A stretch of 64,000 nucleotides of DNA from Bacilli bacterium (GTDB taxonomy: Bacteria; Bacillota_I; Bacilli_A; RF39; UBA660). The notes below the pieces were generated by a model. It searched no databases, was not told the origin of the DNA, and worked only from the letters and a program-made list of their open reading frames with translations. The position numbers and the translations under genes were made by a program. Location: the NCBI GenBank assembly GCA_051886655.1, contig JBJEYJ010000086.1, positions 38 to 64,037 of the forward strand. Direction: 5' to 3'. Positions 9,508 through 62,384 of the stretch are shown here, in pieces. Position 1 is the stretch's first letter. Each line of letters opens with the position of its first letter.

Positions 9508-9508
9508 T

Positions 9509-11533: not shown

Positions 11534-11542
11534 TTTTGCCTC

Positions 11543-13042: not shown

Positions 13043-13057
13043 TTTTTTTTCTCCTTT

Positions 13058-44099: not shown

Positions 44100-44665
44100 A
44101 ATATGTTATCGTATTTAGATTTTAAAAATGGATTTGGAGATTTTTAAAACGAGGGCAAATTAATTTTCAATATTTAAAAAAATTTTTTCCCAAAACATAC
44201 TCCCCCCAGAAAAAGAAATAAGTACGTTCAGTAGATTAGACAAAATAAAAAAATGCACAATCGCTCAATAGCCCCAGATAAAAAAGATTTAAAATAAAAC
44301 TATTTAAATCTTTTTTCTTTGCTTAATGATGCGATAATCAAATGCGTCGGCTTGCCAGCGGCCAAGGCAAGCCGCTTTGAGGTTAATATAATAGCTTTGC
44401 AAATTTTTTTATAGCTTTCATGCAAACAGATGTTCATGTGATGTTCCTATAACTCAGTTGCATCAAGCACTACAGCTGTTTCCTTACAGTGTCAACAGAT
44501 CCAGATCTACAAGGCGCAAAAAATGAACAAATGTTTACATTCCTTGCAAGCCTTGATACTGTAGGGCTCTAGCTGCTGCCGCAAACATTTGTTTACCTCT
44601 TGTAGAAGTTTACATAATCACTTGCAAATAAAATAAAAAAAAATAAAAAATTTTAATCAAAATGC

Positions 44666-44694
44666 TTGACAAATAAACACAATGGGTGTATAAT
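44666..44694 (+). promoter_or_regulatory. early promoter cassette (TTGACA, 17 nt, TATAAT) preceded by an A/T-tract UP-like element
   Basis: Perfect consensus hexamers with 17-nt spacing. Confidence 0.6.
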
Positions 44695-44726
44695 AAGTAT
44701 GAAGATAAGGAAAGGAGCTGATTGGT

Positions 44727-45044
44727 ATGATAGAGTTACAAATAACACTATTTGATAAGAATAAAAAGTATAAGCCAATGAGTACAATAGTAAAGATAGA
44801 AAGTATTGATTATTACAATACACACAAAGCAGAAGTACAAAAAAGAGCAATAGAGAACATAGCACATCAAAGGAAGATGTTACCAAGTGAGATAATAAAA
44901 GCAGGTTATACACAAGTTAAAACAAGAGTGTATGACAAAGAAAAGATAAAAGAACAACAAGAACTACAACATAAAATAAATTTAATTAAATACATTGAAA
45001 GAAAAAGAGAAGAAAGAAAGGAAAGTGATAATCTATGAGAATAA
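44727..45044 (+). CDS. hypothetical protein of 103 to 105 aa
   Basis: Track ORF. Ends at TGA (45036) that overlaps the next ATG and is followed two codons later by in-frame TAA. Confidence 0.55.
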
Positions 45045-45367
45045 CAAAAGTAATAAAAATGGTAAAAAAAAGTAATGTATTAACAAAGCAAGAGAAAAGA
45101 GGACTAATCATAAAAGGACTAATAGAAACTATAGTCAATGTCTATAAGACTATAGTCAAAGTACCTTTTGCTATAATAGGAATGATACTTGTTACACTTG
45201 AAACACTATTACATACAATAGCAGAAGGAATAGAACTAATAGAACAAGTGTTTAGTTGTATAGTAATACTACTTGACGAGAAATTACCAGAATGTAGTTT
45301 AACAAAAGGTCAAGCAAGAGATAAATTGATAAAAGAAATAAAAACAAACACTTTTAAAGTAAAATAG
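45035..45367 (+). CDS. small membrane protein, 110 aa
   Basis: Track ORF with a hydrophobic core (FAIIGMILVTLETLL). Confidence 0.55.
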   Translation: MRITKVIKMVKKSNVLTKQEKRGLIIKGLIETIVNVYKTIVKVPFAIIGMILVTLETLLHTIAEGIELIEQVFSCIVILLDEKLPECSLTKGQARDKLIKEIKTNTFKVK

Positions 45368-45382
45368 AAAGGGTTGATAAAA

Positions 45383-45550
45383 ATGAAAAAATTTTTAATT
45401 TTAGTTATTTGTTTATTATTAGGATTTATAAGTGGCATTGTTTATACAATAGAAACAATGCAAGTAGACATAGTAAGTGAAACTAGCAAAGGTGCAGTTA
45501 TAAGAATAATAGTATTAAATCAATGGTTTAATCATTATGTAGAAAAATAA
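45383..45550 (+). CDS. small membrane or secreted protein of about 55 aa
   Basis: ATG after GGGTTGATAAAA. Translation MKKFLILVICLLLGFISGIVYTIE... Confidence 0.4.
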   Translation: MKKFLILVICLLLGFISGIVYTIETMQVDIVSETSKGAVIRIIVLNQWFNHYVEK

Positions 45551-45571
45551 AATAAAAAAATAAAAAAACTA

Positions 45572-45600
45572 TTGACAAAATACCTTTTAGGGTGTATAAT
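45572..45600 (+). promoter_or_regulatory. early promoter cassette (TTGACA, 17 nt, TATAAT)
   Basis: Consensus hexamers with an upstream A-tract. Confidence 0.6.
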
Positions 45601-45629
45601 AATTATAGAAAAAGGAAAGGTGATTTAAA

Positions 45630-46106
45630 ATGAAAAAAATATTTTTAGATTTAGATGGAACAGTAGCAAAGTTCAATGTGAGAAATGCTTTAAAAAGATT
45701 TGAAACAGAAAAAGGGTTCTTCGCAAAGTTAGGAGCATACAAAGGAATTGAAAAAATTAATGAAATGGCAAAATGCGGAAATGTTTACATAATTAGTGCA
45801 AGTCCTAATGAACAAGCAGATAGCGACAAAATGGAATGGATAGAAAAATACTTAAATAATGTACCAATGGAAAATAGACTAATTTGCAGATGTGGAGATA
45901 ATAAGGCAGAGTTCTTAAAAGCAAAAGGAATTGAAATTGACAAGAATTGCTACTTATTAGATGATTACACAAAAAACTTAATAGAGTGGGAAGAAGTTGG
46001 CGGAATTGGTATAAAAAGAATTACAAAAGTAGCAGACAATAGCAGAAAACTTTGGAAAGGTTTAGAAGTGAAAAATTTAGGCAACCTAGCAACAGTGGTT
46101 GCCTAA
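45630..46106 (+). CDS. HAD-superfamily 5'(3')-deoxyribonucleotidase-like phosphatase, 158 aa
   Basis: N-terminal FLDLDGTVAKF (DxDGT motif I). Size matches NT5C-type phage dNMP phosphatases. Confidence 0.65.
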   Translation: MKKIFLDLDGTVAKFNVRNALKRFETEKGFFAKLGAYKGIEKINEMAKCGNVYIISASPNEQADSDKMEWIEKYLNNVPMENRLICRCGDNKAEFLKAKGIEIDKNCYLLDDYTKNLIEWEEVGGIGIKRITKVADNSRKLWKGLEVKNLGNLATVVA

Positions 46107-46121
46107 TAGATAGGAGGAAAA

Positions 46122-46325
46122 ATGGAAGAAGTTTATCATTGCAAAAAATGTGGTAAAGAATTAGAGTGGGCTGATACAATAGACCATGAGGGAGGAATAC
46201 AAGAGGGTTACATAATAGAAAGACAAATTTGGACTTGTGAAGATTGCGACACCTCTTATGTAATAGAGCAAAGAGCGGATTTTCAAGAGCAAGATGTATC
46301 AACAATTTATTTTGAAGAAAGTTAA
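46122..46325 (+). CDS. zinc-ribbon protein, 67 aa
   Basis: CKKCGK...CEDCD four-Cys motif. Confidence 0.5.
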   Translation: MEEVYHCKKCGKELEWADTIDHEGGIQEGYIIERQIWTCEDCDTSYVIEQRADFQEQDVSTIYFEES

Positions 46326-46336
46326 TAGATTATGTA

Positions 46337-46364
46337 AACTGCGGCAACCGCAGTTTTTATTTTA
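46337..46364 (+). terminator. rho-independent terminator (AACTGCGG-CAAC-CCGCAGTT plus T-run), itself embedded in an inverted pair of ATTATGTAAAC / GTTTACATAAT
   Basis: Seen directly. Confidence 0.65.
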
Positions 46365-46462
46365 CATAATCTAGGGTAAACTAATTATGTAAACTATTCG
46401 CTGGCGCGCGTGCGGTTGTGGCGCGCCGTTTGACAGTTAACATAATCACTTGCAATAATTTG

Positions 46463-46496
46463 CGAACAAATGTACGCTTTTTCGAACAAATGTTCG
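46463..46496. promoter_or_regulatory. two tandem LexA 'Cheo' boxes: CGAACAAATGTACG (one mismatch) and CGAACAAATGTTCG (perfect Gram-positive SOS box)
   Basis: Firmicutes LexA consensus is CGAAC-N4-GTTCG. Centres are 20 bp apart. Confidence 0.55.
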
Positions 46497-46603
46497 CATC
46501 CCAAAACTCTTGATACTCTAGCGTTTGATCGGATCGCCGCAATCCTTACAGCCTCAAGGCATTGCCGCTCTTGAAAAAAATAAAAATTTTTTTTAAAAAA
46601 TGC

Positions 46604-46632
46604 TTGACAAACAATACAAATGGTAGTATAAT
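46604..46632 (+). promoter_or_regulatory. early promoter cassette (TTGACA, 17 nt, TATAAT)
   Basis: Consensus, with UP-like A/T tracts. Confidence 0.6.
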
Positions 46633-46663
46633 AATTACAGAGTTAAGGAAAGAGGGTATAAAA

Positions 46664-47362
46664 ATGAAAGTTGATAAAAGAAAAAAATATTTAATGGTTT
46701 TAGATGTAGAAACTACAAACAATATTATGGAAAAAGGAGCTCCAAACGATGGTTTGGTTTATGATATAGGTTTTACAATTATTGATAAACAAGGAAACAT
46801 TTACGCAAAAAGAAGTTTTGCAATTAAAGAAATATTTGATTGGAAAGAACTTATGTCTACTGCTTATTATGCTAAAAAATTACCTATTTATTATGAAAGA
46901 CTTAAACAAGGAAAAATGGAAAAGATTACAATTTGGCAAGCAAGAAAAAGAATACACCAAGCAATAGAATACTTTGGAATAAAAGAAGTGTATGCCTACA
47001 ATGCAAATTTTGATTATACAACATTAAATAATACAGTTAGATATTTAAGTGGAAGTGCTTGTCGTTGGTTTTTTCCTTATGGAACACAAATTTGTGATAT
47101 TTGGCACATTGCTTGTCAAACATTATGTCTACAAAAAACTTTCCAATGGGAAAATGTAAGAAATGCAAACAATAATTTAATTACAAATGCAGAAAGAGTG
47201 TTTGGCTATTGTGAACAAACAGATTTTGAAGAAGAACACACAGGGCTAGCCGATGCAATAGTAGAAAGTCAAATTTTAGCAAGATGTTTTAAATCACATA
47301 AAAGCATTGATAAAAAAATAAATAGGGCTTGTTGGAGAATACCACAACAAGCCACTGCCTAA
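46664..47362 (+). CDS. DEDDh-family 3'-5' exonuclease (DnaQ / RNase T-like), about 232 aa
   Basis: Exo I LVLDVETT, Exo II YAYNANFDY and Exo III HTGLADA motifs. RBS AAGGAAAGAGGG. All 6 Trp are TGG. Confidence 0.75.
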   Translation: MKVDKRKKYLMVLDVETTNNIMEKGAPNDGLVYDIGFTIIDKQGNIYAKRSFAIKEIFDWKELMSTAYYAKKLPIYYERLKQGKMEKITIWQARKRIHQAIEYFGIKEVYAYNANFDYTTLNNTVRYLSGSACRWFFPYGTQICDIWHIACQTLCLQKTFQWENVRNANNNLITNAERVFGYCEQTDFEEEHTGLADAIVESQILARCFKSHKSIDKKINRACWRIPQQATA

Positions 47363-47392
47363 AAAAAAAATAAAAATTTTTTTAAAAAAGTA

Positions 47393-47421
47393 TTGACAAA
47401 TAATACAAATGGTAGTATAAT
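47393..47421 (+). promoter_or_regulatory. early promoter cassette (TTGACA, 17 nt, TATAAT)
   Basis: Consensus. Confidence 0.6.
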
Positions 47422-47454
47422 AATTATAGAAGTTAGGAAAGAGGAGGAAAACAA

Positions 47455-47619
47455 ATGAAAGAGTTAGTAAAAAATTTAATAGGTGGAATAATTTTAACAG
47501 GTTTAGTACTAGGGTTCTTCTATTTACTAGGAATAGTAGAAATGATAATAGAAAGACATTTTTGGTTAATGATACCACTAACAATTTATGTAATCTATTT
47601 AATATTAAAAGAAATTTAA
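47455..47619 (+). CDS. small membrane protein of about 54 aa
   Basis: GAGGAGG RBS. Two predicted TM segments. Not in the track because it is shorter than 60 aa. Confidence 0.45.
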   Translation: MKELVKNLIGGIILTGLVLGFFYLLGIVEMIIERHFWLMIPLTIYVIYLILKEI

Positions 47620-47628
47620 AAAAAAGTA

Positions 47629-47657
47629 TTGACAAATATTAAAAAATAGAATATAAT
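47629..47657 (+). promoter_or_regulatory. early promoter cassette
   Basis: TTGACA, 17 nt, TATAAT. Confidence 0.55.
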
Positions 47658-47684
47658 ATAATAAAGAAAGGGAAGGTGATAACA

Positions 47685-47915
47685 ATGATAACTTTTAAGT
47701 CAATAACAGTTTTAAAGTTAATCCAAGAAAAACTTTTTAATCAAACAGAGGATTTTGAAGAAGAATATTACTTTATTGTAAATGATATTTTCTTTCCTAT
47801 TCAAGAAATATTTGTTTTTGAAGGTGGGATAGAAGTAAAAAATACATCTTATGATATAGACATTGAAATAAAAGCAAATGAAAAAGACTTGATCTGGAAA
47901 AAAGAAGAAGAATAA
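47685..47915 (+). CDS. hypothetical protein of about 76 aa
   Basis: GGAAGGTG RBS then ATG. Confidence 0.5.
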   Translation: MITFKSITVLKLIQEKLFNQTEDFEEEYYFIVNDIFFPIQEIFVFEGGIEVKNTSYDIDIEIKANEKDLIWKKEEE

Positions 47916-47941
47916 AAAATAAAAATTTTTTCAAAAAAGTA

Positions 47942-47970
47942 TTGACAAACAAAAGAAAAAGTAGTATAAT
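47942..47970 (+). promoter_or_regulatory. early promoter cassette
   Basis: TTGACA, 17 nt, TATAAT, followed by a long structured leader. Confidence 0.55.
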
Positions 47971-48058
47971 AAAAGTACAATAAGGGTAGGGTAAAAAGTT
48001 GATAATAACCTACGGTAGCAACTCATAAATAAAATTTTTGAAAGGTTAGGTGGTAGTT

Positions 48059-48427
48059 ATGGCAAACAAAGTAACTAAAAAAGAAAGATTTATGGAGTTA
48101 TTAAACATTAGAGAGGTAGCAGAAAATGCGGAAATGGTAGAGTTCATTAATCACGAACTAGAACTATTAAATAAAAAAAGTGCAAAAAGTGGTATGACAG
48201 CAAATCAAAAAGTAAATGAAGGACTAAAAGAGGTTATTACAGAACATTTAAAACTAGCAGGAAGAGCAATGACAATTACAGAACTACAAAGCGAAATTAA
48301 AGAAATTGCAGAATTAAGTAATCAAAAAGTAAGTGCATTACTAACACAACTTGTAAATACTAATGTAATCATTAGAGAGAAAGACAAAAAGACAACATTG
48401 TTCAAATACAACGATGAACAAATATAG
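48059..48427 (+). CDS. paralog family A member 1: small protein with a C-terminal winged-helix-like region (regulator?)
   Basis: Shares ELELL.KK.AKSGMTANQKVNE and a C-terminal SNQK.SALL..LV.T...KDKK.T.F block with 50242..50607 (plus strand) and 55363..55719 (minus strand). Confidence 0.6.
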   Translation: MANKVTKKERFMELLNIREVAENAEMVEFINHELELLNKKSAKSGMTANQKVNEGLKEVITEHLKLAGRAMTITELQSEIKEIAELSNQKVSALLTQLVNTNVIIREKDKKTTLFKYNDEQI

Positions 48428-48556
48428 ATAGAGGGCGAAAGCCCTTTATTTTTATGTTAAGTGCAGAAACAGATGTTTGGTTTCCAGTATGCAACTGATT
48501 ATGTAAACCAAAATTTTGTTCGCCGGCGCGTCGTGGATTGTGACGCGCCGTTTGAC

Positions 48557-48570
48557 AGAACAGTTGTTCG
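48557..48570. promoter_or_regulatory. LexA Cheo box AGAACAGTTGTTCG (perfect GAAC-N4-GTTC core)
   Basis: Intergenic, next to a GTTTACATAAT motif. Confidence 0.5.
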
Positions 48571-48630
48571 GTTTACATAATTTTTTTTCCAATTTTTTCC
48601 AGTTTACATAATCTGTTGACTCCTAAAACT

Positions 48631-48642
48631 GAACATCTGTTC
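48631..48642. promoter_or_regulatory. LexA Cheo box GAACATCTGTTC (perfect core)
   Basis: Lies 70 bp upstream of an early promoter -35. Confidence 0.5.
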
Positions 48643-48710
48643 ATACTAAATCTCGCAGATCAGCTTGGGAGTAAGGATCGCCGCATTATAAAGAATTTTT
48701 TAAAAAAATG

Positions 48711-48739
48711 CTTGACAAACACGCTATAAAGTAGTATAA
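48711..48739 (+). promoter_or_regulatory. early promoter cassette
   Basis: TTGACA, 17 nt, TATAAT. Confidence 0.6.
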
Positions 48740-48758
48740 TAATTATAGTAAAGGAAAG

Positions 48759-49223
48759 GTGATACAAATGAACTTGATTAAAAAATTTTATGTTAAACAA
48801 TTCGTACATTCTATTGATAAAAATATTAAAGTTAAATTTGGAAAAAATTTACAATGCGACATAGAAAATCAAACAATTTATGTAACTAATAAAACTGATA
48901 AAATAGATATTCAAACTTTTAAAGAGTATGTAAGAGAATTGAATAGTAAATGTTTTTTTAATACTTTTATTTTAGGAATATTACACGAAATAGGACATAT
49001 TTACACTTATGATGAAAGAGATGAGGAAGAATATTTTAGAGATAACGAACTATTAACACTACTTTTTCAAGAGAAAAAAATTGATGCCGTAGATTTTAAT
49101 AAATTCTATCTAAGATTAGAAATGGAGAAAAAAGCAACTCAATGGGCTATTGATTTTTCAATGTTAAATAAAGATTTTTGTAAAAAATATCAAAAAAAAT
49201 TAGGCAAAGAAATTTATAAATAG
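48759..49223 (+). CDS. HExxH metallopeptidase-like protein (ImmA/IrrE/DUF955-like?), 154 aa
   Basis: GILHEIGHIYTYDERDEEE: an HEIGH zinc-binding motif in a protein of about 150 aa, the size of ImmA-type anti-repressor proteases. Confidence 0.5.
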   Translation: MIQMNLIKKFYVKQFVHSIDKNIKVKFGKNLQCDIENQTIYVTNKTDKIDIQTFKEYVRELNSKCFFNTFILGILHEIGHIYTYDERDEEEYFRDNELLTLLFQEKKIDAVDFNKFYLRLEMEKKATQWAIDFSMLNKDFCKKYQKKLGKEIYK

Positions 49224-49226
49224 GGG

Positions 49227-49255
49227 TTGACAAAAGCCCCTAACTATGTTATAAT
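49227..49255 (+). promoter_or_regulatory. early promoter cassette
   Basis: TTGACA, 17 nt, TATAAT. Confidence 0.55.
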
Positions 49256-49281
49256 AGTATTATAGAAAGGAAGATGTAAAA

Positions 49282-49500
49282 ATGAGAAAAGATATTTTTA
49301 AAAATGCTAATCAAGTAAGAGCAACAGCCGAAGACTATAATGCAAAATGTTGTAAAAGATATAAAGGACAAGGAAAAATATTAAGAAGATACGCAAGACA
49401 CAAATTAAATGAACATGATAAAGAAGAAATAAGACAGGTATTAGCATTTCAAAAAAATATAAATTTTTACAAAATTAAAAAGGAAAGGAATTGATAATTA
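49282..49500 (+). CDS. basic small protein of about 71 aa
   Basis: Track ORF. Ends TGA then TAA (TGATAA). Confidence 0.45.
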
Positions 49501-49838
49501 TGAAAAAAGAACCAATGCAAATTTTGTATATTTTAAGAAATGGAGAAACAAATCAGTATAAAATAGGAATTACAGATAATCTAAATAGAAGATTATCTCA
49601 ACTACAAACTGGTTGTCCAGAAGAATTACAGATAATTAAATTATGGAAACATTATCAAAGAAACATAGTCAAAAGATATGAAAGAGTGTTGCATAGATAT
49701 TTTACAAAATGTGGTTGTAGAATAAGACCAAATGGAGAATGGTTTAATTTAAAACAAGTTGATATAAATTATTTATGTAAACCAAATACAATAGCAGAAC
49801 AAAATGAGATAATAGAAAATTTATTAGAAATGATGTAA
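49500..49838 (+). CDS. GIY-YIG / T5orf172-type domain protein, about 112 aa
   Basis: ILYILRNGETNQYKIGITDNLNRRLSQ matches the Y..L....-YKIG.T.N...R pattern. Confidence 0.5.
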   Translation: MKKEPMQILYILRNGETNQYKIGITDNLNRRLSQLQTGCPEELQIIKLWKHYQRNIVKRYERVLHRYFTKCGCRIRPNGEWFNLKQVDINYLCKPNTIAEQNEIIENLLEMM

Positions 49839-49872
49839 AGTGCGGGCTTCCGCACTTTTTCTACATAACTCT

Positions 49873-49990
49873 AGAACAAATGTTTCCACGAACGATCGTT
49901 TGGAGCCCGTTTCGCAGGTTTACATAATAACTTAACATTTTTCATTATGAAAAATTATTTTCAGATCGAACATTTGTACTCCTAAAACTC
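49873..49990. promoter_or_regulatory. cluster of three one-mismatch Cheo-like boxes (AGAACAAATGTTTC, CGAACGATCGTTTG, CGAACATTTGTACT) interleaved with GTTTACATAAT motifs
   Basis: Intergenic region upstream of the double promoter at 50045 to 50164. Confidence 0.35.
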
Positions 49991-50044
49991 GTCGCAGTTT
50001 ACATAATGTATTGCAAATAAAATAAAAATTTTTTTTAAAAAGTA

Positions 50045-50073
50045 TTGACTTTTTATAATAATTATAGTATAAT
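50045..50073 (+). promoter_or_regulatory. promoter (TTGACT, 17 nt, TATAAT)
   Basis: First promoter of a tandem pair. Confidence 0.5.
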
Positions 50074-50135
50074 AATTATAGTCAAAAGGAAATAGAAAAT
50101 CTTAAAAATTAATTTTAAGAAATTTTAAAAAACTC

Positions 50136-50164
50136 TTGACAAACAAAACAAAAAATGTTATAAT
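50136..50164 (+). promoter_or_regulatory. promoter (TTGACA, 17 nt, TATAAT)
   Basis: Second promoter of the tandem pair. Its leader contains a GAAC..GTTC hairpin. Confidence 0.55.
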
Positions 50165-50241
50165 AATTATAACAAAGGAAGATAAAAAACCTTGAGAACT
50201 TCCTGTAAAGGTTCATAAAAATAAAAATAAAAAATTGAAAG

Positions 50242-50607
50242 GTGGAATGTATTATGGCAAACAAAAAAACAAAAAGAGAATTATTTGGAGAAATCAGAGA
50301 AATTGTAGTAGGAAATGAAGAACTTGTAAACTTCATAGACCACGAATTAGAACTATTAGACAAGAAACACGCAAAAAGTGGAATGACAGCAAATCAAAAA
50401 GTAAATGCTGAAATAGTTGACAAATTATACAGTGCATTAGTTGAAGTTGAAACAGCCCTAACAATAAATGAAATCCAAGAACAATTTGATTTTACCAAAG
50501 AATTAAGTAATCAAAAAATAAGTGCATTATTAAAGAAATTAGTTGATACTGGAAAAGTTGAAAGAATAAAAGACAAAAAAGTTACAAGATTTCAAGCAAT
50601 AGTATAG
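50242..50607 (+). CDS. paralog family A member 2, 121 aa
   Basis: See 48059..48427. C-terminus is SNQKISALLKKLVDTGKVERIKDKKVTRF. Confidence 0.6.
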   Translation: MECIMANKKTKRELFGEIREIVVGNEELVNFIDHELELLDKKHAKSGMTANQKVNAEIVDKLYSALVEVETALTINEIQEQFDFTKELSNQKISALLKKLVDTGKVERIKDKKVTRFQAIV

Positions 50608-50661
50608 AGTAAGGGGCAAATGCCCCTACTCAAAAAAAAATAAAATTTTTTCAAAATACTA

Positions 50662-50690
50662 TTGACAAATTTTCTCAATAGTAGTATAAT
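50662..50690 (+). promoter_or_regulatory. early promoter cassette
   Basis: TTGACA, 17 nt, TATAAT. Confidence 0.55.
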
Positions 50691-50714
50691 AATAATAGAA
50701 AAGGAGTTGATAGT

Positions 50715-51125
50715 ATGATAGTAAAAATTAAAAATAAGGAAGTAAAAATTCCAGAAGAAGAAATTAAAAAGAATATGAAAATACTTGACATAACAGAAGA
50801 AGAAGCAATACAAATGTATTTAGAAGATGAAGGTTATGAGGTTAATGAAGAAGTAGAAAAGTTGACTAAAAAGGCAAAAGAAAATAATATAAAAATAAGG
50901 GGCGACAGTGATAAACCTAGAGCCAAGCGAAATATAGAACGCAAAACAAATCCAGTTAAAGAAGAAGTTATACAAATATTAGCACAGACACTAGCAAATT
51001 ATGGAAACCTTAATATTCATAATGTAAAAGTGGAAAATATTGGAAAACTTATTACTTTTAATGTAGGAGAGCGTCAATTCAAACTAGATTTAATAGAAAA
51101 AAGACCTCCAAAAGCCTCAAAATAG
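50715..51125 (+). CDS. paralog family B member 1, 136 aa
   Basis: Shares LTKKAKEN...DKPRAKR...NIGKLI.F...KLDLI with 54038..54439 on the minus strand. Confidence 0.6.
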   Translation: MIVKIKNKEVKIPEEEIKKNMKILDITEEEAIQMYLEDEGYEVNEEVEKLTKKAKENNIKIRGDSDKPRAKRNIERKTNPVKEEVIQILAQTLANYGNLNIHNVKVENIGKLITFNVGERQFKLDLIEKRPPKASK

Positions 51126-51353
51126 GGCTTTTTACAAAAGAAAAAGGCTAAAAGGCTTGAAAAATCTTGTCTTTTGGTTGAAAATGGCGGAAATGAGCGA
51201 ATAATCGCTCATTTTTTCGCGTTTTAGGCGAACTTTTGTTTAAATTTACATAAAATAATGTAAATTTTTGTAAAAAATGGTTGAAAGTGTTGCGGCTGTA
51301 GGGATTTAGCAGGTTTACATAATTTGCCGGCTCGGCGTGGAGCGCCTTTGAGC

Positions 51354-51367
51354 CGAACACGCGTTCT
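51354..51367. promoter_or_regulatory. LexA Cheo box CGAACACGCGTTCT
   Basis: Perfect GAAC-N4-GTTC core in a long non-coding region. Confidence 0.45.
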
Positions 51368-52032
51368 AAAATACCTATATGCGATTTTTTCGTAGGTTTT
51401 GGGCTTTATGCTCTTTTTCTCTAGCTTCCTGAAACCTCTTAGGTTTACATAATAACTTTACAGGCGCGATTCCAGATTCTTTTAACCTACATCCGCGCAA
51501 TATGCAAAATTGCCATAGTTTCAGGCTTCTTTATGACTTGATTTTTTTAAAAATTTTTGATATAATACTAAAAAAACTTAAAATATTGCCGCATAAAACC
51601 AAAAATAAAGTTGACATTTTAAGCCAACTTTTTTCTTTAAAATCATTCTCATGCTTTCATATTTGCCCCATCTACTTTTAACTAAAATTTTAAACAAAAG
51701 CAAATGTATCTGCCTAATAAAAAATTTTACTTCCATCTCTATACTTTAACTAACTGGGGGCCGCGCTCTTTTTAAGGACAGACTTTCCATTATATCATCT
51801 TTATTATATTATATCAAATTTTTTATAAAATATCAACTTTAATAAAATTTGCCACAATTTTTTAAATTATTTTCCTTGATCCTTCCTATTTCACATGAGT
51901 GCAATAGTCAAGCAAAATGAGAAGCAAAATAATATCTCTAACTTTTACAAATTAAAAAAAGAAGAAAAAAATATTCTTTTCTTTTATTGCGGAGACGGAG
52001 ATACGAGGATCTGTTAACCCAGGTCGCCGCAT

Positions 52033-52061
52033 TTGCAAATTATAAAAAAATATGATATAAT
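52033..52061 (+). promoter_or_regulatory. promoter (TTGCAA, 17 nt, TGaTATAAT extended -10)
   Basis: Preceded by a GGTCGCCGCA element. Confidence 0.5.
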
Positions 52062-52087
52062 AAATATATAAATAGTAAGGAGGAAAA

Positions 52088-52617: not shown

Positions 52618-52740
52618 GCCACCACAAATTCCACAAATGCCACATATCTACAAATCTACATATCTATATACTCGCATATCTACACTATATACTACATATC
52701 TACATATCTATATACATACATTATATCTCCATATACTTGC
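52618..52740. repeat. array of short direct repeats: CCACAAAT x3 followed by about six ATATCTA(C/T)A units
   Basis: Seen directly: ccacaaattccacaaatgccacatatctacaaatctacatatctatatactcgcatatctacactatatactacatatctacatatctatatacat... Confidence 0.75.
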
Positions 52741-52797: not shown

Positions 52798-53508
52798 TTA
52801 ATTTTTCACTTCAATTAACGCATTTCTTTCTACAAGAGTTCCTCTTACTACTTGACAACCAATCTTCTCCTGCAATTCCTTTAAAAATGTTAAAAAGTTC
52901 ATATCCGTCATATTTGTCATCTCTTCTAATACATCTCACGCCTCATCTTTTGTTATCTCTCCTGCCGCAACCATTCCCTTTACTAATATCTGCTTTTCAG
53001 TTGTATCTCCAAAATATTTAGTTTGTAAATTCTTTTTTATTTGCTCTTCCTCAGGAGTTAAAAAACTATATTCTCCAGTTTCTTTATCTCTTTTACATCA
53101 CAAATAAATACATTTACCTAATTTTCCTCCACTCATAAAAGGTTTTCCATATAATTCATTTCTACCTTCTCTTGTATATTTTACAATAGTATCAGGTTGT
53201 CTAGTTACCCCCTCTTTATTTAATAATTCACATATCTCATTTCCAACCCTTGTACAACTATCTAATCCATTTTCGCTTCAAACCTCATCAATTTTTTTAA
53301 CAACCATCTGCTTTGTTTTTGCTTGCTGCTTTTGATAAACAGGTTCATAAATTTCTGTAATAACAACTTTACCTTTTTCTTCGTAAAAATCAGCAAATAA
53401 TTTCAATTCCTCTAATTTTTTTTCTTTATTATTTCTAAAAGTTGCATAACTAATTCCAAATCATTCAGCAAGTTCTTTAGAAGATATTTTTCCAATTTGT
53501 AATTGCAC
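52798..53508 (-). CDS. HTH DNA-binding protein of about 236 aa containing four in-frame TGA codons (candidate late-gene regulator or replication-organiser)
   Basis: GAGAGGAGAG RBS then GTG start. N-terminal KISSKELAEWFGISYATFRNN HTH-like segment. TAA near 52798. Absent from the track because of the TGA codons. Confidence 0.5.
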
Positions 53509-53588
53509 TTTTTTATCTCTCCTCTCAATAATATATAAATTTTTTACTAATTAAATATTACAAAATTAACCAAATGTCATAAAAAATT

Positions 53589-53646
53589 TTGTAACATTTT
53601 TTTCCGCCCATAGAAATAATATTATGGGCGGAAAAAAATGTTACAA
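53589..53646. repeat. 58-bp near-perfect palindrome: 24-bp arms TTGTAACATTTTTTTCCGCCCATA and its reverse complement, separated by a 10-bp spacer
   Basis: Seen directly. Confidence 0.8.
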
Positions 53647-53860
53647 AATAATAAAAGTAATAGGCGGTTGGGGGAACCTCCATATCCGAGCTTCGCTCTC
53701 CATGGAGTCACCCAACCGATAGGTAGGTAAGAGTAATCCGTAAAAAGTATATTTAGTTTCGTTTTTTCGTTAGATAAAGATTTTTTTAAAAGTAGCTTTT
53801 TTTTATATGATGCGGCAATTCTTGCTCTATGGCCCGCCTAATCGAGTTCCCGCATAATAA
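53640..53860 (-). ncRNA. GC-rich structured non-coding island with a long imperfect hairpin (CGGTTGGG...CCCAACCG); candidate ncRNA
   Basis: No ORF. Local GC is much higher than background. Nested stems. Shares a GGAACTCG(A)TTAGG motif with 55160..55362. Confidence 0.3.
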
Positions 53861-53863
53861 AAG

Positions 53864-54031
53864 GGACTAATTGTCCCTTATAATAACCTTATCAGATTTA
53901 AAGAAATTTCTTATAATCTTTTCAGCTTCGCTTTTATCTATTTCTATAATATATTCTCCACCGTCATAATATCCTGCATATTTATGGATATCTATTAAAT
54001 TTTTCGTTTCTTCTATTTGATTAAAATTATA
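53864..54031 (-). CDS. small protein of about 55 aa
   Basis: AAAGGAGGAAATAGGGG then TTG start. Translation MYNFNQIEETKNLIDIHKYAGYYDGGEYIIEIDKSEAEKIIRNFFKSDKVIIRDN. Confidence 0.35.
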
Positions 54032-54037
54032 CAACCC

Positions 54038-54439
54038 CTATTTCCTCCTTTGAATTAAATCTAATTTATATTTATTACCGTCACATTCAAATTCTATAAG
54101 TTTACCAATATTAGTTATTTTTAAATGTTCTACACCATCTAAATTAGTTAGCATTTGAGCAACTGCGGCAATTATTCTTTCTTTTGTTGGATTTTCCTTT
54201 CTAGTAACTTCTCTCTTTGCTCTTGGCTTATCTTCAGCTTTTGCTTCATGAATTGTTGCGGTAATCCTATTTTCTTTTGCTTTTTTAGTTAATCTTTCTT
54301 CTTGTTCATTTTTAATATAATCATTATCGGCTAACCATGTATCTATGGCTTCTTGCATTGATATTTCAAGAGTATCAACTAATCTATCTATTTCCTCATC
54401 TGGAATTTCAATTATTTTATTTTCAAATTTATATTTCAT
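54038..54439 (-). CDS. paralog family B member 2, 133 aa
   Basis: See 50715..51125. Driven by a TTGACT, 17 nt, TGaTATAAT promoter near 54470. Confidence 0.6.
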   Translation of the reverse strand: MKYKFENKIIEIPDEEIDRLVDTLEISMQEAIDTWLADNDYIKNEQEERLTKKAKENRITATIHEAKAEDKPRAKREVTRKENPTKERIIAAVAQMLTNLDGVEHLKITNIGKLIEFECDGNKYKLDLIQRRK

Positions 54440-54605
54440 AAATAACCACCCTTCCTTTTTATTATTTATATAATAATTATATCATATTTTTTTTAAAAAG
54501 TCAATAGACAGGTTAAACCTATACACCAAAAATTTTTAAGGAGCGGCAACCGATGGTATATAGATACATTACTCACGAATAAAAAAGCGACATACATGCC
54601 GCCAG

Positions 54606-54917
54606 CTATTTATTAAATAATACTGTATTATATATTGAAGTTAAATATTGTTTTCCATCTTTACTCTTGATCTTAATTTTACCATCGTCTAAACTATTCC
54701 AAGTATCAACGTCAACTTCTATATATTCACTTCCTATTGTTATATATGCTTTTGTATATAATGTATTTACATTTGTCATATCCATATTACTTGTCATAGA
54801 TGGCGGAACCACTATAATATATGCTATTCCTCCAATAAGTATAAAAACTACTAATGCTATTGCAATAATTCCAATTGCATCTAACACATCATAATACATT
54901 CTAATTAACCTCCTCAT
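54606..54917 (-). CDS. membrane protein, 103 aa
   Basis: TM segment IIAIALVVFILIGGIAYIIVV. Confidence 0.55.
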   Translation of the reverse strand: MRRLIRMYYDVLDAIGIIAIALVVFILIGGIAYIIVVPPSMTSNMDMTNVNTLYTKAYITIGSEYIEVDVDTWNSLDDGKIKIKSKDGKQYLTSIYNTVLFNK

Positions 54918-55104
54918 ACATAATCAATAAAGTTAAGTATATTCCAGTTTCAGTCTTCTTTTCTATAATATTATCTTCTATTGTTGTAACAATAGTATCT
55001 GTACTCATTTTTATATCTATAATCTTTTTATCTAGCATCCATTTATTGATAACATCTTTTGCTTTAACATCATTTGGTGCTATTGTAAAATATTCTATTT
55101 TCAT
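54901..55104 (-). CDS. hypothetical protein of about 67 aa; start at MKIEY...
   Basis: Track ORF 54901..55155, with an internal ATG preceded by AAAGAAAGGAATG. Confidence 0.45.
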   Translation of the reverse strand: MKIEYFTIAPNDVKAKDVINKWMLDKKIIDIKMSTDTIVTTIEDNIIEKKTETGIYLTLLIMYEEVN

Positions 55105-55159
55105 ATTTTCATTCCTTTCTTTAATAAATAAGAGATAGAATGATTCCCCGCTCATCCTA

Positions 55160-55362
55160 TCTCTACCTAAGTTTGTGCTACTTGGGAAGCTGTTCTTTAT
55201 TTATCCTCGCATCCCCTAACGAGTTCCTATATTTTACTAGCTGTAACACTAGGAGGCTTTTACTATCGGTTAGAGACCATACCTCAACGGTATTATTTAT
55301 ACTCGACTCAAGTGTCCGCAGACCTTAAGCCCCGAGTTAGAGTGCGGCAATCGCCGCATCTC
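55160..55362 (-). ncRNA. GC-rich structured 3' region between two genes (GCGGCGATTGCCGC hairpin and others, ending in an 8-bp-stem terminator-like hairpin); candidate ncRNA
   Basis: About 200 nt with no ORF. GC content far above background. Shares a motif with 53640..53860. Confidence 0.3.
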
Positions 55363-55719
55363 TTATTCACTCTCTTTTATAGAGAATAATGTAACCTTTT
55401 TGTCTTTTACTCTTACTACTCTATTAGTATCTACTAATTTCTTTAAAAGAGCAGACATTTTTTGATTTGAGAAATCAGCTATTGTTTCATCTTCAGCTTG
55501 GATTTCAGCAACAGTAGCAGGTTTTCCTAATCTTGCTAATGCTTCATATACAACTTCTACTAATCCTTCATTTTCTTTTTGTGTTTTTGTTTGAGCAAAT
55601 TTTCTATTTGCTAATCTTTCAATTTCTTTTTCGCAGAATTCTACTGCTCCTTGTTCTCCAGCCTCAACAGCTAAATCTCTTAAAACTCCTAAATAATCTT
55701 TTTTTGTCATTTTTTCCAT
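55363..55719 (-). CDS. paralog family A member 3, 118 aa
   Basis: C-terminus SNQKMSALLKKLVDTNRVVRVKDKKVTLF. Preceded by two tandem TTGATT, 17 nt, TATAAT promoters (55773..55801 and 55858..55886). Confidence 0.6.
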   Translation of the reverse strand: MEKMTKKDYLGVLRDLAVEAGEQGAVEFCEKEIERLANRKFAQTKTQKENEGLVEVVYEALARLGKPATVAEIQAEDETIADFSNQKMSALLKKLVDTNRVVRVKDKKVTLFSIKESE

Positions 55720-55857
55720 AATAAATCACCTCATTTAACCTTTCTTTATATTTTTATTTTTTCTATACTTATATTATATAATAATTTTTTTATATAATCA
55801 ATTATTATTTCTTTAAGGTGCATAGAAACCTTTTTTTCTTTTTCTTTTGTTAATATA

Positions 55858-55886
55858 ATTATATAATATTTTTTTTATATAATCAA
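55858..55886 (-). promoter_or_regulatory. module-2 promoter (TTGATT, 17 nt, TATAAT on the minus strand)
   Basis: One copy of a roughly 45-bp cassette repeated at least 11 times. Confidence 0.5.
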
Positions 55887-55899
55887 CTTAGTGGTACTT

Positions 55900-56376
55900 A
55901 TGTTATTTTACAAGTCCTATATGCCCCACTAAGTATTATGTAGGCGACTTGGTATTCCTTTCGCACTTTAAGGTATGCTGCCAGGGTTACTCAGGCTACC
56001 TTTGATATATATTAGCCTATCAAAAAAATAGTTACCAACTACAACCACGAGGAGGTTTATATCGTATGTAGTTATCTATAGATGGAAGCTTTGCTCACTG
56101 GTTTACCAACCTTTATATATAAGAGCGGCGGATGAGGAAATAATAATTTAATTTTTAGAAAGGAATTTTTACTATAACAGACCGCCGCATAATTAGGAAG
56201 GGGGGCAAAGAGTGTTTTCACCAAATCTATAAACTATCACCAAATTTCTTCGGTGAGATGAGACTCGAACTCATCTTCTCTCTTACCAATAGGATTTTAT
56301 AAGCTCTTGCCTTTTGTTCCTATCTTCAACGATTATCTCTAAACCGTCAACATTTATATTTTTCTTTTCTTTTTCT
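55900..56376 (-). ncRNA. non-coding transcript candidate of about 470 nt, driven by the module-2 promoter at 56383..56411. GC-rich hairpins and a tRNA T-arm-like element (GATGAGTTCGAGTCTCATC).
   Basis: No ORF longer than about 12 codons on the minus strand. Consensus promoter at its 5' end. Multiple stems (GCGGCGG..CCGCCGC, CTTAGTGG..CCACTAAG). Confidence 0.35.
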
Positions 56377-56382
56377 ATATAT

Positions 56383-56411
56383 ATTATATAATAATTTTTA
56401 AAAATTATCAA
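56383..56411 (-). promoter_or_regulatory. module-2 promoter (TTGATA, 17 nt, TATAAT)
   Basis: Seen directly. Confidence 0.5.
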
Positions 56412-56575
56412 TTAAATCGGCGGGAGGAGGCTTTTCACCTTACCACTCTGGGAATTATGGATTTCACAACCTTGTTTAAGCTTGATCAGCTCTAGGAGTT
56501 GGTCCTCCAAGTGTTCCATTGATTCACTTCATTTATTATCTTCACACCTATATACTTTGGCTATCCCGCTAATAT

Positions 56576-56947
56576 TTAATCCATATCTATACCTCTATAA
56601 TAATGTATTATATCACAAGAATAATCATCTCCGCTTTCACCAAATACTTTTCTTTCTTCAATATCTGATAGCTCTTCTCCTAATCTTACAAAACTATATG
56701 GTTTACCATTCTCTTGTATCTCTATTAAATAATTTTCTATATATTGCACATCTTCATTATCTTGATACCATTTAACCCAATCCCAGTATAAAATAACTAC
56801 ATTATCACTAGGATTTCTAACTTCACCATAATCTATTAAATCTATAACATCTTGCCTATTATTTATTTTTGCTCTCTCAACTAATTCCTCATAATCACTT
56901 TTTTTCATTGCTATTGCAACTTCTGATCTATATCCCATAACAATCAC
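56576..56947 (-). CDS. hypothetical protein, 123 aa
   Basis: Track ORF. Promoter at 56966..56994. Confidence 0.55.
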   Translation of the reverse strand: MIVMGYRSEVAIAMKKSDYEELVERAKINNRQDVIDLIDYGEVRNPSDNVVILYWDWVKWYQDNEDVQYIENYLIEIQENGKPYSFVRLGEELSDIEERKVFGESGDDYSCDIIHYYRGIDMD

Positions 56948-56994
56948 TTTCCTTTCTATACTTATATTATATAATATTTTTTAATAATTATCAA

Positions 56995-57201
56995 TTATCT
57001 TTTTTGTACTATTTCAAATTTATCTTCACTTTTAATAATTTCTGCATTCTCATAGTCTTCAAGTACTCTTCTTTGCATTTCATCAATAGCTCCAATTCCT
57101 TCTATAATTTCACCTGCAATTCTATCAATTACTTTCATATACATACCTTCTTTCTTTTCTTTTTCTATATATATTATATAATAATTTTTAATTATTATCA
57201 A
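56995..57201 (-). CDS. hypothetical protein, 68 aa
   Basis: Track ORF. Confidence 0.4.
   Translation of the reverse strand: MIIIKNYYIIYIEKEKKEGMYMKVIDRIAGEIIEGIGAIDEMQRRVLEDYENAEIIKSEDKFEIVQKR
57173..57201 (-). promoter_or_regulatory. module-2 promoter (TTGATA, 17 nt, TATAAT)
   Basis: Overlaps the 3' end of the upstream gene. Confidence 0.5.
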
Positions 57202-57551
57202 TAAAGAAAATAATCTTCATCATTTATAGTATAAGTATAGTTTCTTATTTTTAGTTTTTTGGCTATTGCGGCAACCGCCTTATTTAGATAAAATTTTCTT
57301 TCTTTTTCATTTTTAAATCTAGAATCGCTTTCTATGCCTAAATATAATAATAGTTCTTTACCATAGTCTGGATAATAGCATGTAAATCCATGATTTCTTA
57401 ATCTTAAATATCCTACTTGTTCATCATCTAAAAAAACATCATATTGCTCTGGACATGCATAACTAGTTAATTTCAATAAAAAAATACTTTTATTCTTTTT
57501 TCTCATCTTTATTTCCTTTCTTTGTAAAAAATACAGTATGATAATCTTCAT
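57198..57551 (-). CDS. hypothetical protein, 117 aa; ends TGA then TAA
   Basis: Track ORF. Confidence 0.5.
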   Translation of the reverse strand: MKIIILYFLQRKEIKMRKKNKSIFLLKLTSYACPEQYDVFLDDEQVGYLRLRNHGFTCYYPDYGKELLLYLGIESDSRFKNEKERKFYLNKAVAAIAKKLKIRNYTYTINDEDYFLY

Positions 57552-57735
57552 TAGAATAATAATATATCAATCCATAATCAAATTGAACTTTGTGTTTTAT
57601 GGTATCTATATTAACTAATTTATGTCCTCTAAACCAATATTCATTTTCTTTATAAAAATCTTTAACATCTTTGTAATTCTTTAATTGCTTTAGCACTCTA
57701 TATAAACTTATTCTTTCCATAAAACACACCTCCAA
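57490..57735 (-). CDS. hypothetical protein, 81 aa
   Basis: Track ORF. Overlaps the start of 57198..57551 in another frame. Confidence 0.45.
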   Translation of the reverse strand: MEVCFMERISLYRVLKQLKNYKDVKDFYKENEYWFRGHKLVNIDTIKHKVQFDYGLIYYYSNEDYHTVFFTKKGNKDEKKE

Positions 57736-58095
57736 TTAAACTAATTTATTAAAACAATTCAAATAATAATCTTGTTTTGGATCATACCTTTCTGGATCAT
57801 TATGATATTTACTCCAAAAATCAGAACGAACTATAAAATCATTTACTTCTTCATAAAATTCACTAACTAAAAACTGTGAGCTTCCCCATATCCATCCTTT
57901 TGAAAATAAAGTGTCTCTATTAGGTTCTAATCTATCTTTTAATTCATAAAGATAATAGAAACAACCTTCATAATCTCCTCTTTGTCTAGCAACTTGTTTA
58001 ATCCAGAATCTATCCCCAAAAACATCTTTTTTTAACTCTCTATTTAATCGTTTTGCTATTCTGTTTATTTTTTTATCAACTTTATTTTTAGCCAT
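57736..58095 (-). CDS. hypothetical protein, 119 aa
   Basis: Track ORF. AAGGAGTG RBS. Promoter at 58129..58157. Confidence 0.55.
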   Translation of the reverse strand: MAKNKVDKKINRIAKRLNRELKKDVFGDRFWIKQVARQRGDYEGCFYYLYELKDRLEPNRDTLFSKGWIWGSSQFLVSEFYEEVNDFIVRSDFWSKYHNDPERYDPKQDYYLNCFNKLV

Positions 58096-58165
58096 AGTTA
58101 AACACTCCTTTCTTTATTTTCTATATATATTATATAATAAATTTTATAAATTATCAATAAATATA

Positions 58166-58456
58166 TTATTCAAGAAACAAATATCCTATTTCTAATGGGA
58201 TAATTTTTAAATGATATGCATAACATTCATTTATATTTTTAGGGGCTATAAAAGATTCAACTACAGCCCCTATTTCTTTTATTACATCAAAAGTGTTATC
58301 TTTTTCATATGGAAATATAGTAGCTTTAAGAGCGGCAACCGCATCTTCATAAGTATTATATGGACTTATAAAAGATTGTCTTATAATTTCATTTGAATTT
58401 TCTAAAAACATATAACATTCTGCTTTTATACCAAATACATTAAGCATTCTCATCAT
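58166..58456 (-). CDS. hypothetical protein, 96 aa
   Basis: Track ORF. Overlaps the upstream gene by 17 nt. Confidence 0.5.
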   Translation of the reverse strand: MMRMLNVFGIKAECYMFLENSNEIIRQSFISPYNTYEDAVAALKATIFPYEKDNTFDVIKEIGAVVESFIAPKNINECYAYHLKIIPLEIGYLFLE

Positions 58457-59990: not shown

Positions 59991-60077
59991 AATACCGACC
60001 TCCTACAATCTTATTATATTATTTTCTTTTCATATATATATTATATAATAATTTTAATAAAAAATCAAAAAGGATTA

Positions 60078-60461
60078 TTAATCCTTTTTCAAGTCTAATA
60101 ATCCAAATTTAGTATTTGTATGTCCCCATATAAATTCATTAAAATCATTATGCGAAAAATCTATCTGATTTAAATCTATTAACAATAATACTTGAGGTTG
60201 TATATGTTCTACACCAGTAACTTTCCCAGTTTCATATTCGTATTCACTTATTGGGCGGCGGCTAGTGATATCAAGCATATAAAATCCAGTTCTTTTTTCT
60301 TCTAATTTAGTTATATCATATCCAGAATCTTCTACTACTGTTTTTAAAGTTTCATTTCCATAAAACCCAACTTCTGTACTAAAATAATATCTTTCATGAT
60401 ATACTAATATTGCTATCCAATTACTTTTTTTATTTATTTCCAATATTTGCAACCTCCCCAT
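60078..60461 (-). CDS. hypothetical protein, 127 aa
   Basis: Track ORF. TAA stop. Confidence 0.5.
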   Translation of the reverse strand: MGRLQILEINKKSNWIAILVYHERYYFSTEVGFYGNETLKTVVEDSGYDITKLEEKRTGFYMLDITSRRPISEYEYETGKVTGVEHIQPQVLLLIDLNQIDFSHNDFNEFIWGHTNTKFGLLDLKKD

Positions 60462-60667: not shown

Positions 60668-60756
60668 CCCTTAAAATAAATGTTTAATATTTTATTACAT
60701 TTATATTATATAATAATTTTATATAATAATCAATAAAAAATAGAAGCATTTAGCTT

Positions 60757-62301: not shown

Positions 62302-62384
62302 TTCAAATCACCTAATTATCTCTGTCGAGATACCTTTCTTATTTTTTCTATATATATTATATCAAAAATTTTTATAGAAATCAA

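Follow-up and report, generated by a model that had tools for sequence, protein, structure and literature searches.

Arrays of a XerD-arm-like motif in the early-operon spacers of a large tailed phage, candidate landing sites for host XerD

The DNA studied here is a stretch of 64,000 nucleotides (hereafter the window) from contig JBJEYJ010000086.1 of assembly GCA_051886655.1, which is filed under a Bacilli bacterium of the UBA660 lineage and carries the early gene cluster of a large tailed phage. We followed up an 11-bp motif, GTTTACATAAT, that recurs in the non-coding DNA of this cluster. The motif is a genuine, strongly over-represented element which, judged by its sequence and distribution, behaves like a protein-binding site, and its reverse complement matches the XerD arm of the dif site. 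We see about even chances that host XerD binds the motif copies, in a role like that of the XerD-binding sites (XDS) of bacterial chromosomes and without recombination; that the motif is related to the XerD arm can be said with more confidence. Binding by XerD itself, and its effect for the phage, are what we infer from these comparisons.

Occurrence of the motif in the early gene cluster

The motif was counted on both strands of the window and in 100 dinucleotide shuffles. The window holds 11 exact copies of GTTTACATAAT, all located between 44608 and 51453, while 0.16 copies are expected; the shuffles contained 3 copies at most and never reached 11. A preliminary description of this DNA had reported at least 11 repeats and had estimated that well under one would arise by chance, in agreement with these counts. 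Allowing up to one mismatch, 24 sites were found versus 5.1 expected, and 17 of these 24 fall in the same interval. All exact copies but one are intergenic (10 of 11). They start at 44608, 45783, 48571, 48602, 49918, 49997, 51313 and 51443 on the plus strand and at 46329, 46384 and 48498 on the minus strand. The positions first listed were right to within about 10 bp, but the one placed at 46359 is a one-mismatch copy at 46360, and the exact copy at 45783 had been missed.

The early cluster consists of about 14 small plus-strand genes (44727-51125) embedded in minus-strand DNA. The motif arrays are restricted to the long spacers between its four operon-like units (46326-46603, 48428-48711 and 49839-50044) and to the two flanking non-coding regions (44100-44665 and 51126-52080). 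The spacers are relatively GC-rich, with a terminator before and a promoter after. The XerD-arm-like copy at 44608-44618 (+) lies 58 bp 5' of the -35 element at 44666, in the extended form GTTTACATAATCACTTGCAAATAAAAT. The genic copy, 45783-45793 (+), is located within the HAD/NT5C gene 45630-46106, where it encodes N-V-Y-I-I, and is also retained in the homologous HAD/NT5C genes of the related phage contigs L009 and L002. In the first spacer, the copy at 46329-46339 (-) begins 4 nt past the stop codon of the open reading frame (ORF) 46122-46325. Its AAAC end forms the base of a terminator hairpin (46336-46356), and a one-mismatch copy, TTTTACATAAT, at 46360-46370 (+) is its inverted partner on the other side of this hairpin. 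A second inverted pair in the same spacer is formed by 46384-46394 (-) as left arm and a one-mismatch copy, GTTAACATAAT, at 46436-46446 (+) as right arm, about a GC-rich hairpin. The next spacer repeats this arrangement, with 48498-48508 (-) and 48571-48581 (+) as left and right arms about a second GC-rich hairpin. The inverted pairs noted in the preliminary description are thus real. Further downstream are the copies at 48602-48612 (+), with TTGAC at +14 and 110 bp 5' of the -35 at 48712; at 49918-49928 (+), 127 bp 5' of the -35 at 50045; and at 49997-50007 (+), 48 bp 5' of the same -35. The right-hand non-coding region, of 0.95 kb, contains the last two, 51313-51323 (+), followed by a GC hairpin, and 51443-51453 (+), with TTTAC at +14. 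It also contains, at 51243-51268, the near-palindrome AAATTTACAT-AAAATA-ATGTAAATTT that had been noticed near 51245, whose two degenerate arms are too close for the geometry of dif. An extended form, in which the motif is followed by TTGCAAATAAAAT, had been assigned to three promoters; it is exact at 44608 and 49997, but degenerate at 46436, where the promoter is 168 bp away.

Correspondence with the XerD arm of dif

A full-text literature search with the 11-mer returned papers on dif and Xer. The dif sites of B. subtilis and S. aureus are ACTTCCTAGAATATATATTATGTAAACT and ACTTCCTATAATATATATTATGTAAACT, respectively. The reverse complement of the motif, ATTATGTAAAC(T), corresponds to the last base of the central region followed by positions 1-10 of the 11-base XerD arm of Firmicutes: ATTATGTAAAC is A+TTATGTAAAC, and the Firmicutes arm is TTATGTAAACT. 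Of 90 non-redundant phage copies, 80 (89%) have T or C at arm position 11.

Related phages were sought with the early-cluster exonuclease gene as query, which retrieved five IMG/VR contigs (73-88% identity, full lengths up to 144 kb); a sixth, L011, was found by scanning for the motif pattern and not by the exonuclease search. Each of these six carries 13-19 exact motif copies in the homologous region, although their early proteins are only 28-88% identical. In orthologous spacers the motif is retained while the flanking sequence has diverged. BLAST against annotated phages gave no useful relative, only two unannotated fecal contigs and short promoter-like matches, one of which lies in the TreJ region of a staphylococcal phage.

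The early regions of this phage family contain 66 one-mismatch variants of the motif, in which TT.ACATAA is almost unchanged. The changes affect the central-region base (26), the outermost base (13) and a single internal base (14). Among the internal changes, 11 of 14 are T to A and give TTATGTTAA, the arm of E. coli and of many proteobacterial dif sites; ATTATGTTAAC, the reverse complement of the copy at 46436, is such an E. coli-type XerD arm. The constrained core, TT(T/a)ACATAA, equals XerD arm positions 1-9. This pattern of variants shows a constrained block with the same boundaries as the XerD arm, and its variable positions are those of natural arms.

The copies are not complete dif sites. 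The best match of the 16 bases upstream of the copies to the XerC arm plus centre of B. subtilis or S. aureus reaches 9 of 16 positions, and TTAT at spacings of 0-10 from the phage copies occurs at background level. A dif site is present once per replicon, at the terminus, whereas the window has 11 copies in 7 kb. The attP site of an integrative mobile element exploiting Xer (IMEX) has both arms or an equivalent made of folded single-stranded DNA; the phage copies lack a XerC arm, and in their inverted pairs a hairpin and a distance of 41-62 bp, not 6 bp, separate the two members. With neither a XerC arm nor an inverted partner, the copies cannot be recombination sites. They occur alone or in head-to-tail arrays, and about half of the phage copies are accompanied by a degenerate direct second copy, sometimes a full one, 13 bp downstream (TTnAC at +14 to +18).

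A separate sequence, AGTTGATATAA-ATTAT-TTATGTAAACC at 49756-49783 in the T5orf172-domain gene 49500-49838, looks like an entire dif whose centre is 5 bp long. The homologous genes of L002 and L003 retain it, which may just reflect the conserved peptide QVDINYLCKPN.

Lone XerD arms in bacterial chromosomes

We scanned IMG/VR, and one genome per bacterial species, for pairs of 11-mer copies 25-55 bp apart. The bacterial scan gave at least 120 genome loci (L096-L215). Among the matches listed, about half belong to Lachnospiraceae and about three quarters to Clostridia from gut or rumen. A typical locus has 2-3 direct copies, 33-63 bp apart, with a purine at -1 as in the phage copies, and sits between ordinary genes, for example between dapA and dapB or by a signal peptidase gene (array coordinates are, for example, 6519-6599 in L111, 4941-5049 in L108 and 6988-7102 in L156). 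In several genomes one contig carries two arrays, which are adjacent or separated by up to about 65 kb. None of the at least 120 loci listed encodes a relative of any window protein.

In two of these genomes (L108 and L156), one metagenome-assembled genome of Nitrospirota and one of Desulfobacterales, a canonical dif, ACGTCyGATAA-N6-TTATGTAAACT, has 2-3 isolated copies, oriented oppositely, within 25-100 bp after it. In L135 and L146 the copies form XerD-XerD palindromes with a 5-bp centre, which is the architecture of XDS. Arrays of lone XerD arms would accordingly appear to be a chromosomal feature, associated with dif where dif is visible, and the phage arrays look like copies of it. Chromosomes of gut Clostridia would then carry triplets of lone XerD arms, which in other phyla stand beside dif. 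We know of no earlier description of head-to-tail lone XerD arms in chromosomes of Lachnospiraceae or other Clostridia.

Complete or palindromic Xer-type sites were also seen in unrelated viral contigs of the IMG/VR scan. Some 700 bp of L056 (9600-10330) contain five complete dif-like sites (AGGTCCGATAA-N6-TTATGTAAACT) and, at about 10325, a sixth that is degenerate (CGTCCGGTAAGAGGCATTATGTCAACT); L054 and L043 have two complete dif-like sites each. L038 contains, at 10730-12060, five XerD-XerD palindromes with 5- or 7-bp centres, located between small genes with consensus promoters. Other matches, L025, L033, L041 and L057, are coding repeats or iterons.

Position of the motif relative to promoters

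The early cluster has 11 strong promoters, of which 10 are perfect TTGACA-17-TATAAT and one, at 50045, has TTGACT. The preliminary description placed the motif 45 to 60 bp upstream of the -35 elements. Only the copies at 44608 and 49997 lie in this range; the remaining copies are 110-275 bp 5' of a -35, or in the right-hand non-coding region without a consensus promoter downstream. Seven of the 11 strong promoters have no motif copy upstream, and none of the copies overlaps a -35 or -10. The motif is thus not a promoter element at fixed distance.

This placement bears on the idea that the motif is itself a promoter or recognition element for a phage RNA polymerase or sigma factor, for instance of middle-class promoters. 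The letter-perfect 11-mer, an A at +17 and the -35-like TTnAC downstream would be compatible with it, as would a single case in which CATAAT stands 18 bp after TTGACA. However, no conserved partner hexamer is found at promoter (-35/-10) spacing, one quarter of the copies face against the genes, and all copies are confined to the early region, the rest of the 64-kb window being taken up by middle and late genes. The like arrays in bacterial chromosomes speak against it as well, and we consider it extremely improbable.

The minus-strand genes (late and structural; 1-42573 and 52798-62957) require TGA as a sense codon. Translating through TGA opens ORFs of 2807, 1567 and 944 codons and raises the ORF coverage from 75% to 89%, while the early cluster reads identically in both codes. 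A portal-like gene and further structural genes were found in the window. Searches of the window with Rfam (gathering thresholds) and ARAGORN returned nothing, and in particular no tRNA. TGA-recoded gut phages of standard-code Firmicutes or Bacteroidetes hosts have been described (bioRxiv 10.1101/2021.08.26.457843), and the window phage fits this group. Its sigma-70 consensus promoters and Cheo boxes would point to a Firmicutes host.

Besides the motif, the early cluster encodes a 5'-deoxynucleotidase-like HAD protein (45630-46106) and a T5orf172/MUG113-domain protein (49500-49838), which together with the consensus promoters are reminiscent of the modules for host takeover, pre-early or in terminal repeats, of T5-like and SPO1-like phages. 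The non-coding region has at its right edge (52622-52737) a tandem array of about 9.6 copies of ACATATCT, a unit of 8 bp, in which larger periods of 16-44 bp are also present; a low-complexity array in L003 (16900-16970) resembles it.

Sites for other host proteins in the same spacers

The window contains 5 LexA/Cheo-type boxes (CGAAC-N4-GTTCG with up to one mismatch) versus 0.09 expected, all of them in the motif spacers. They are 70-170 bp from promoters, none over them, and some abut the motif. Two stand in tandem at 46463-46496 (CGAACAAATGTACG and CGAACAAATGTTCG). A third, AGAACAGTTGTTCG at 48557-48570, abuts the motif copy 48571-48581 to form a combined element (48557-48581, +), and the other two are CGAACGATCGTTTG at 49889-49902 and CGAACACGCGTTCT at 51354-51367. 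The motif had been described as distinct from the Cheo box, and we agree: it is asymmetric and unrelated to the Cheo palindrome, and the boxes are its separate neighbours.

The related phage L002 has 14 such boxes, whereas L003 has nearly none. Where the other phages have LexA boxes, L003 has 2 perfect parS sites, TGTTTCACGTGAAACA, and 3 with two mismatches, interleaved with the motif (9078, 11899, 11929, 14017 and 14310). This 16-mer is the optimal parS of B. subtilis (PMC4333373). parS sites were found in one of the six phages examined, namely L003. No Pfam match to a phage-encoded XerD, ParB or LexA was obtained among 20 proteins neighbouring the cluster. From these matches, at least two conserved chromosomal proteins of the host, and probably three, appear to have high-affinity sites in the early spacers. 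DnaA boxes (TTATCCACA) are not enriched: one-mismatch boxes are scattered in the window, with one in the early region (44906, within an ORF) and none in the spacers. Scans for Noc NBS, RacA ram, SpoIIIE SRS and RTP Ter sites showed no enrichment of any of them.

The spacers share further elements. The GC-rich hairpin between the copies at 46384 (-) and 46436 (+) occupies 46402-46428 (+) and reads GGCGCGC, an 11-nt loop and GCGCGCC; the second, between 48498 (-) and 48571 (+), occupies 48524-48550 (+) and reads CGGCGCG, a 13-nt loop and CGCGCCG. The stem is under compensatory change, since 98.6% of the alignment cells are paired, 4 of 8 pairs are altered on both sides, and none of 500 shuffles reaches the score. 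The hairpin is seen in the window, L009, L002, L003 and L006, with a stem of 7-8 bp and a G/T-rich loop of 11-13 nt (for example GTGCGGTTGTG); motif copies are usually on its flanks, and a T-rich stretch follows. A short element, TCCCAAAAC / TCCTAAAAC / TCCCATAAC, is repeated in the spacers of the window (44188, 46499, 48621 and 49980), L009, L002 and L003, often just 5' of a LexA or parS palindrome. In L004, GAAGCGG occurs at least 12 times in 20 kb (5485-14624; 28% GC) versus well under one expected; L003 has 6 copies and the window none, and some copies are within terminator stems. GAAGCGG is the Chi sequence of S. aureus and includes that of B. subtilis, AGCGG.

Two explanations treat these host-type sites together. 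In the first, they would serve maintenance of the phage as an episome, in a carrier or plasmid-like state, with parS addressing ParAB, XerD sites the terminus and FtsK, and LexA boxes the SOS response. The perfect chromosomal parS of L003, the enrichment of LexA boxes and the identity of the motif with the XerD arm are in line with this, and a single chromosomal parS is said to stabilise a plasmid in B. subtilis (Lin and Grossman reportedly found this in 1998). However, Xer could not resolve dimers at sites that include no complete dif, parS is confined to one phage in six, and the LexA boxes stay clear of the promoters. Moreover, the 10 kb around the early cluster contain no repressor, integrase or replication-partition gene. 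We therefore regard episome maintenance as improbable. In the second explanation, the sites would be decoys of high affinity which, multiplied to hundreds or thousands by phage replication, titrate XerD, LexA and ParB off the host chromosome, cause SOS induction and derail segregation and division, as a form of host takeover in cis. Each genome offers 10-19 XerD-type sites and 5-14 LexA boxes in an early cluster of host-takeover style, and all three site types belong to host chromosomal proteins. The idea is, however, purely inferential, and the ordered positions of the sites (after a terminator, before an UP element, beside a conserved hairpin) suggest a local role rather than bulk titration; we find it very doubtful.

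Host XerD or a phage-encoded regulator

The preliminary description attributed the motif to a second regulator, perhaps a family of paralogous winged helix-turn-helix (wHTH) proteins called family A. A second DNA-binding protein remains a reasonable proposal, but host XerD is the better candidate. The window encodes two family A paralogs, at 48059-48427 (+), the candidate binder, and at 50254-50607 (+), and there are 2-4 paralogs per phage. Their 291 metagenomic relatives include no curated family. The structural model is a generic winged helix (mean predicted local distance difference test score 84.7) with ArsR/PadR/MarR-like matches, none of which has E <= 0.001 in the PDB; FtsK-gamma is absent among the 50 fold matches listed, and comparison with PDB sequences gave nothing. 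Both genes have leaders of about 90 nt between promoter and start codon (47971-48058 and 50165-50253) that are alike in layout, and these leaders could be an autoregulatory RNA element.

If the motif were the operator of family A or of another early protein that tunes or shuts the strong early promoters, its identity with the XerD arm would be coincidence or mimicry. Family A paralogs occur in or beside the motif-bearing region of L002, L003, L004 and L011, and the proteins are predicted to fold as winged helices with ArsR/PadR/MarR-like matches and a conserved recognition helix. In the unrelated phage L038, motif palindromes, small wHTH-like genes and consensus promoters are found together. 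Nevertheless, no homology was detected between family A and the wHTH-like protein of L038 (hhalign probability 0.5%). From phage to phage, the family A proteins share only 28-47% identity, whereas the site is letter-perfect in more than 100 copies. As described above, the majority of consensus early promoters lack a copy and none is overlapped by one, and like arrays are present in bacterial chromosomes without a gene for any homolog of the window proteins. Finally, chance is very unlikely to produce an exact match of 11-12 nt to the XerD arm in which the core boundaries coincide as well. A phage operator thus seems to us fairly unlikely. Because the motif equals the XerD arm and the arrays recur in chromosomes that encode none of the window proteins, host XerD is preferred over family A.

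Several observations nonetheless weigh against binding by XerD. The partner expected for XDS, an inverted nATAA at 5-6 bp, accompanies only 2 of 107 phage copies. The direct second copy 13 bp downstream corresponds to no known XerD arrangement and is weak in the chromosomal arrays. In the phage family, 66 copies are oriented along early transcription versus 20 opposed, and in 15 of 33 cases the promoter-proximal copy is found 40-64 bp 5' of the -35, immediately past an A/T-rich UP-like tract; this bias in orientation and this clustering suggest a link to transcription, as an operator would have. Family A has a fairly conserved recognition helix, SNQK(I/V)SAL. Since SMC is loaded at parS, the parS sites of L003 misfit a role purely in SMC eviction. 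As for the scans, the pair scan of IMG/VR gave 53 loci for the motif and 35 for the reversed 11-mer, with like copy numbers, and the uncontrolled bacterial count calls for the same caution. We have accordingly dropped the wide occurrence of the motif in unrelated viruses as evidence.

Proposed role of the arrays

On the reading that host XerD binds them, the arrays would be recombination-independent landing pads, placed after a terminator and ahead of the following strong early promoter, in the company of LexA boxes (or parS) and the conserved GC hairpin. XerD on these pads might keep loop-extruding SMC (structural maintenance of chromosomes) complexes off the heavily transcribed early DNA, or confined on it. 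We propose such fencing because the one activity on record for isolated XerD sites is that of XDS, which block SMC-ScpAB and unload it. More broadly, the phage may dress its early DNA with proteins that organise the host chromosome. This broad version, in which host organisers are loaded, would accommodate the parS sites of L003 better than the narrow version of SMC eviction does.

A more general proposal is that large phages of gut Clostridia copy the cis grammar of the host chromosome (XerD or XDS arms, parS, LexA boxes and possibly Chi-like sequences) into their early spacers and so recruit host organisers, with XerD fencing off SMC, either the housekeeping Smc-ScpAB or an SMC-family defence. 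We consider this unlikely as a whole. If it were true, the spacers would constitute a countermeasure encoded in DNA and free of protein, as well as a host-takeover device.

Arrays of host chromosome-organising sites between early operons seem to be new for a phage of this kind. If XerD binds, this would be the first large tailed phage to use isolated XerD sites, and to do so for managing host DNA organisers and not for integration. To our knowledge, the chromosome terminus, where such sites unload SMC, has so far been the only place in which isolated XerD sites are known. Binding would also link the architecture of the early region to SMC biology and SMC-family defence, and would explain why the 11-mer is frozen across phages with diverged proteins.

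Comparison with known systems

The closest chromosomal counterparts are the XDS of the B. subtilis and S. aureus terminus, which unload SMC-ScpAB (PMC9226527, PMC11840125). XDS act without XerC and consist of a XerD arm, a degenerate centre of 5-6 bp and, in inverted orientation, the inner five bases of another XerD arm (PMC9226527). Placed ectopically, an array of XDS stops SMC from translocating and forms a boundary (PMC11840125). The phage copies share with XDS a true XerD arm, the lack of a XerC arm, the presence in multiple copies and the lack of use in recombination. They differ by the rarity of the inverted five-base partner, which is seen in the bacterial loci L135 and L146 and in the phage contig L038, and by their position, since XDS are in the chromosome terminus while the phage copies are between early operons, many of them with the degenerate direct copy downstream.

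With dif and the attP sites of IMEX such as CTX-phi and TLC-phi, the phage copies share the XerD arm TTATGTAAAC(T) and, in the case of IMEX, the possible exploitation of host Xer by a mobile element. Those sites have a XerC arm and a 6-bp centre with an inverted partner and are present in one copy, the IMEX being integrating filamentous elements; the phage sites have neither that arm nor such a centre and number 11-19, and the window phage is a large (about 120-145 kb) tailed phage with an early cluster of lytic style.

The plasmid-prophage N15 has dispersed centromere sites near promoters, which are bound by its own SopB. N15 and L003 thus both have partition-type sites scattered near promoters in a phage genome; in L003, however, parS follows the consensus of the host chromosome, and a ParB gene was not observed.

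In phage T5, the injection-stop (iss) stretch within the left terminal repeat contains an array of DnaA boxes (Davison, bioRxiv 10.1101/866236). Both phages have conserved arrays of sites, putative ones in the window phage, for host chromosomal proteins in untranslated pre-early or early DNA that is rich in repeats, inverted repeats and palindromes, and the deoxynucleotidase and T5orf172-domain genes of the window phage add to the likeness. The T5 sites are for DnaA and form one block, whereas those of the window phage are of XerD, LexA and ParB type and extend over 4-5 spacers, DnaA boxes being unenriched. By analogy only, the T5 iss array may be regarded as the closest phage precedent for arrays of host-factor sites in an early untranslated region.

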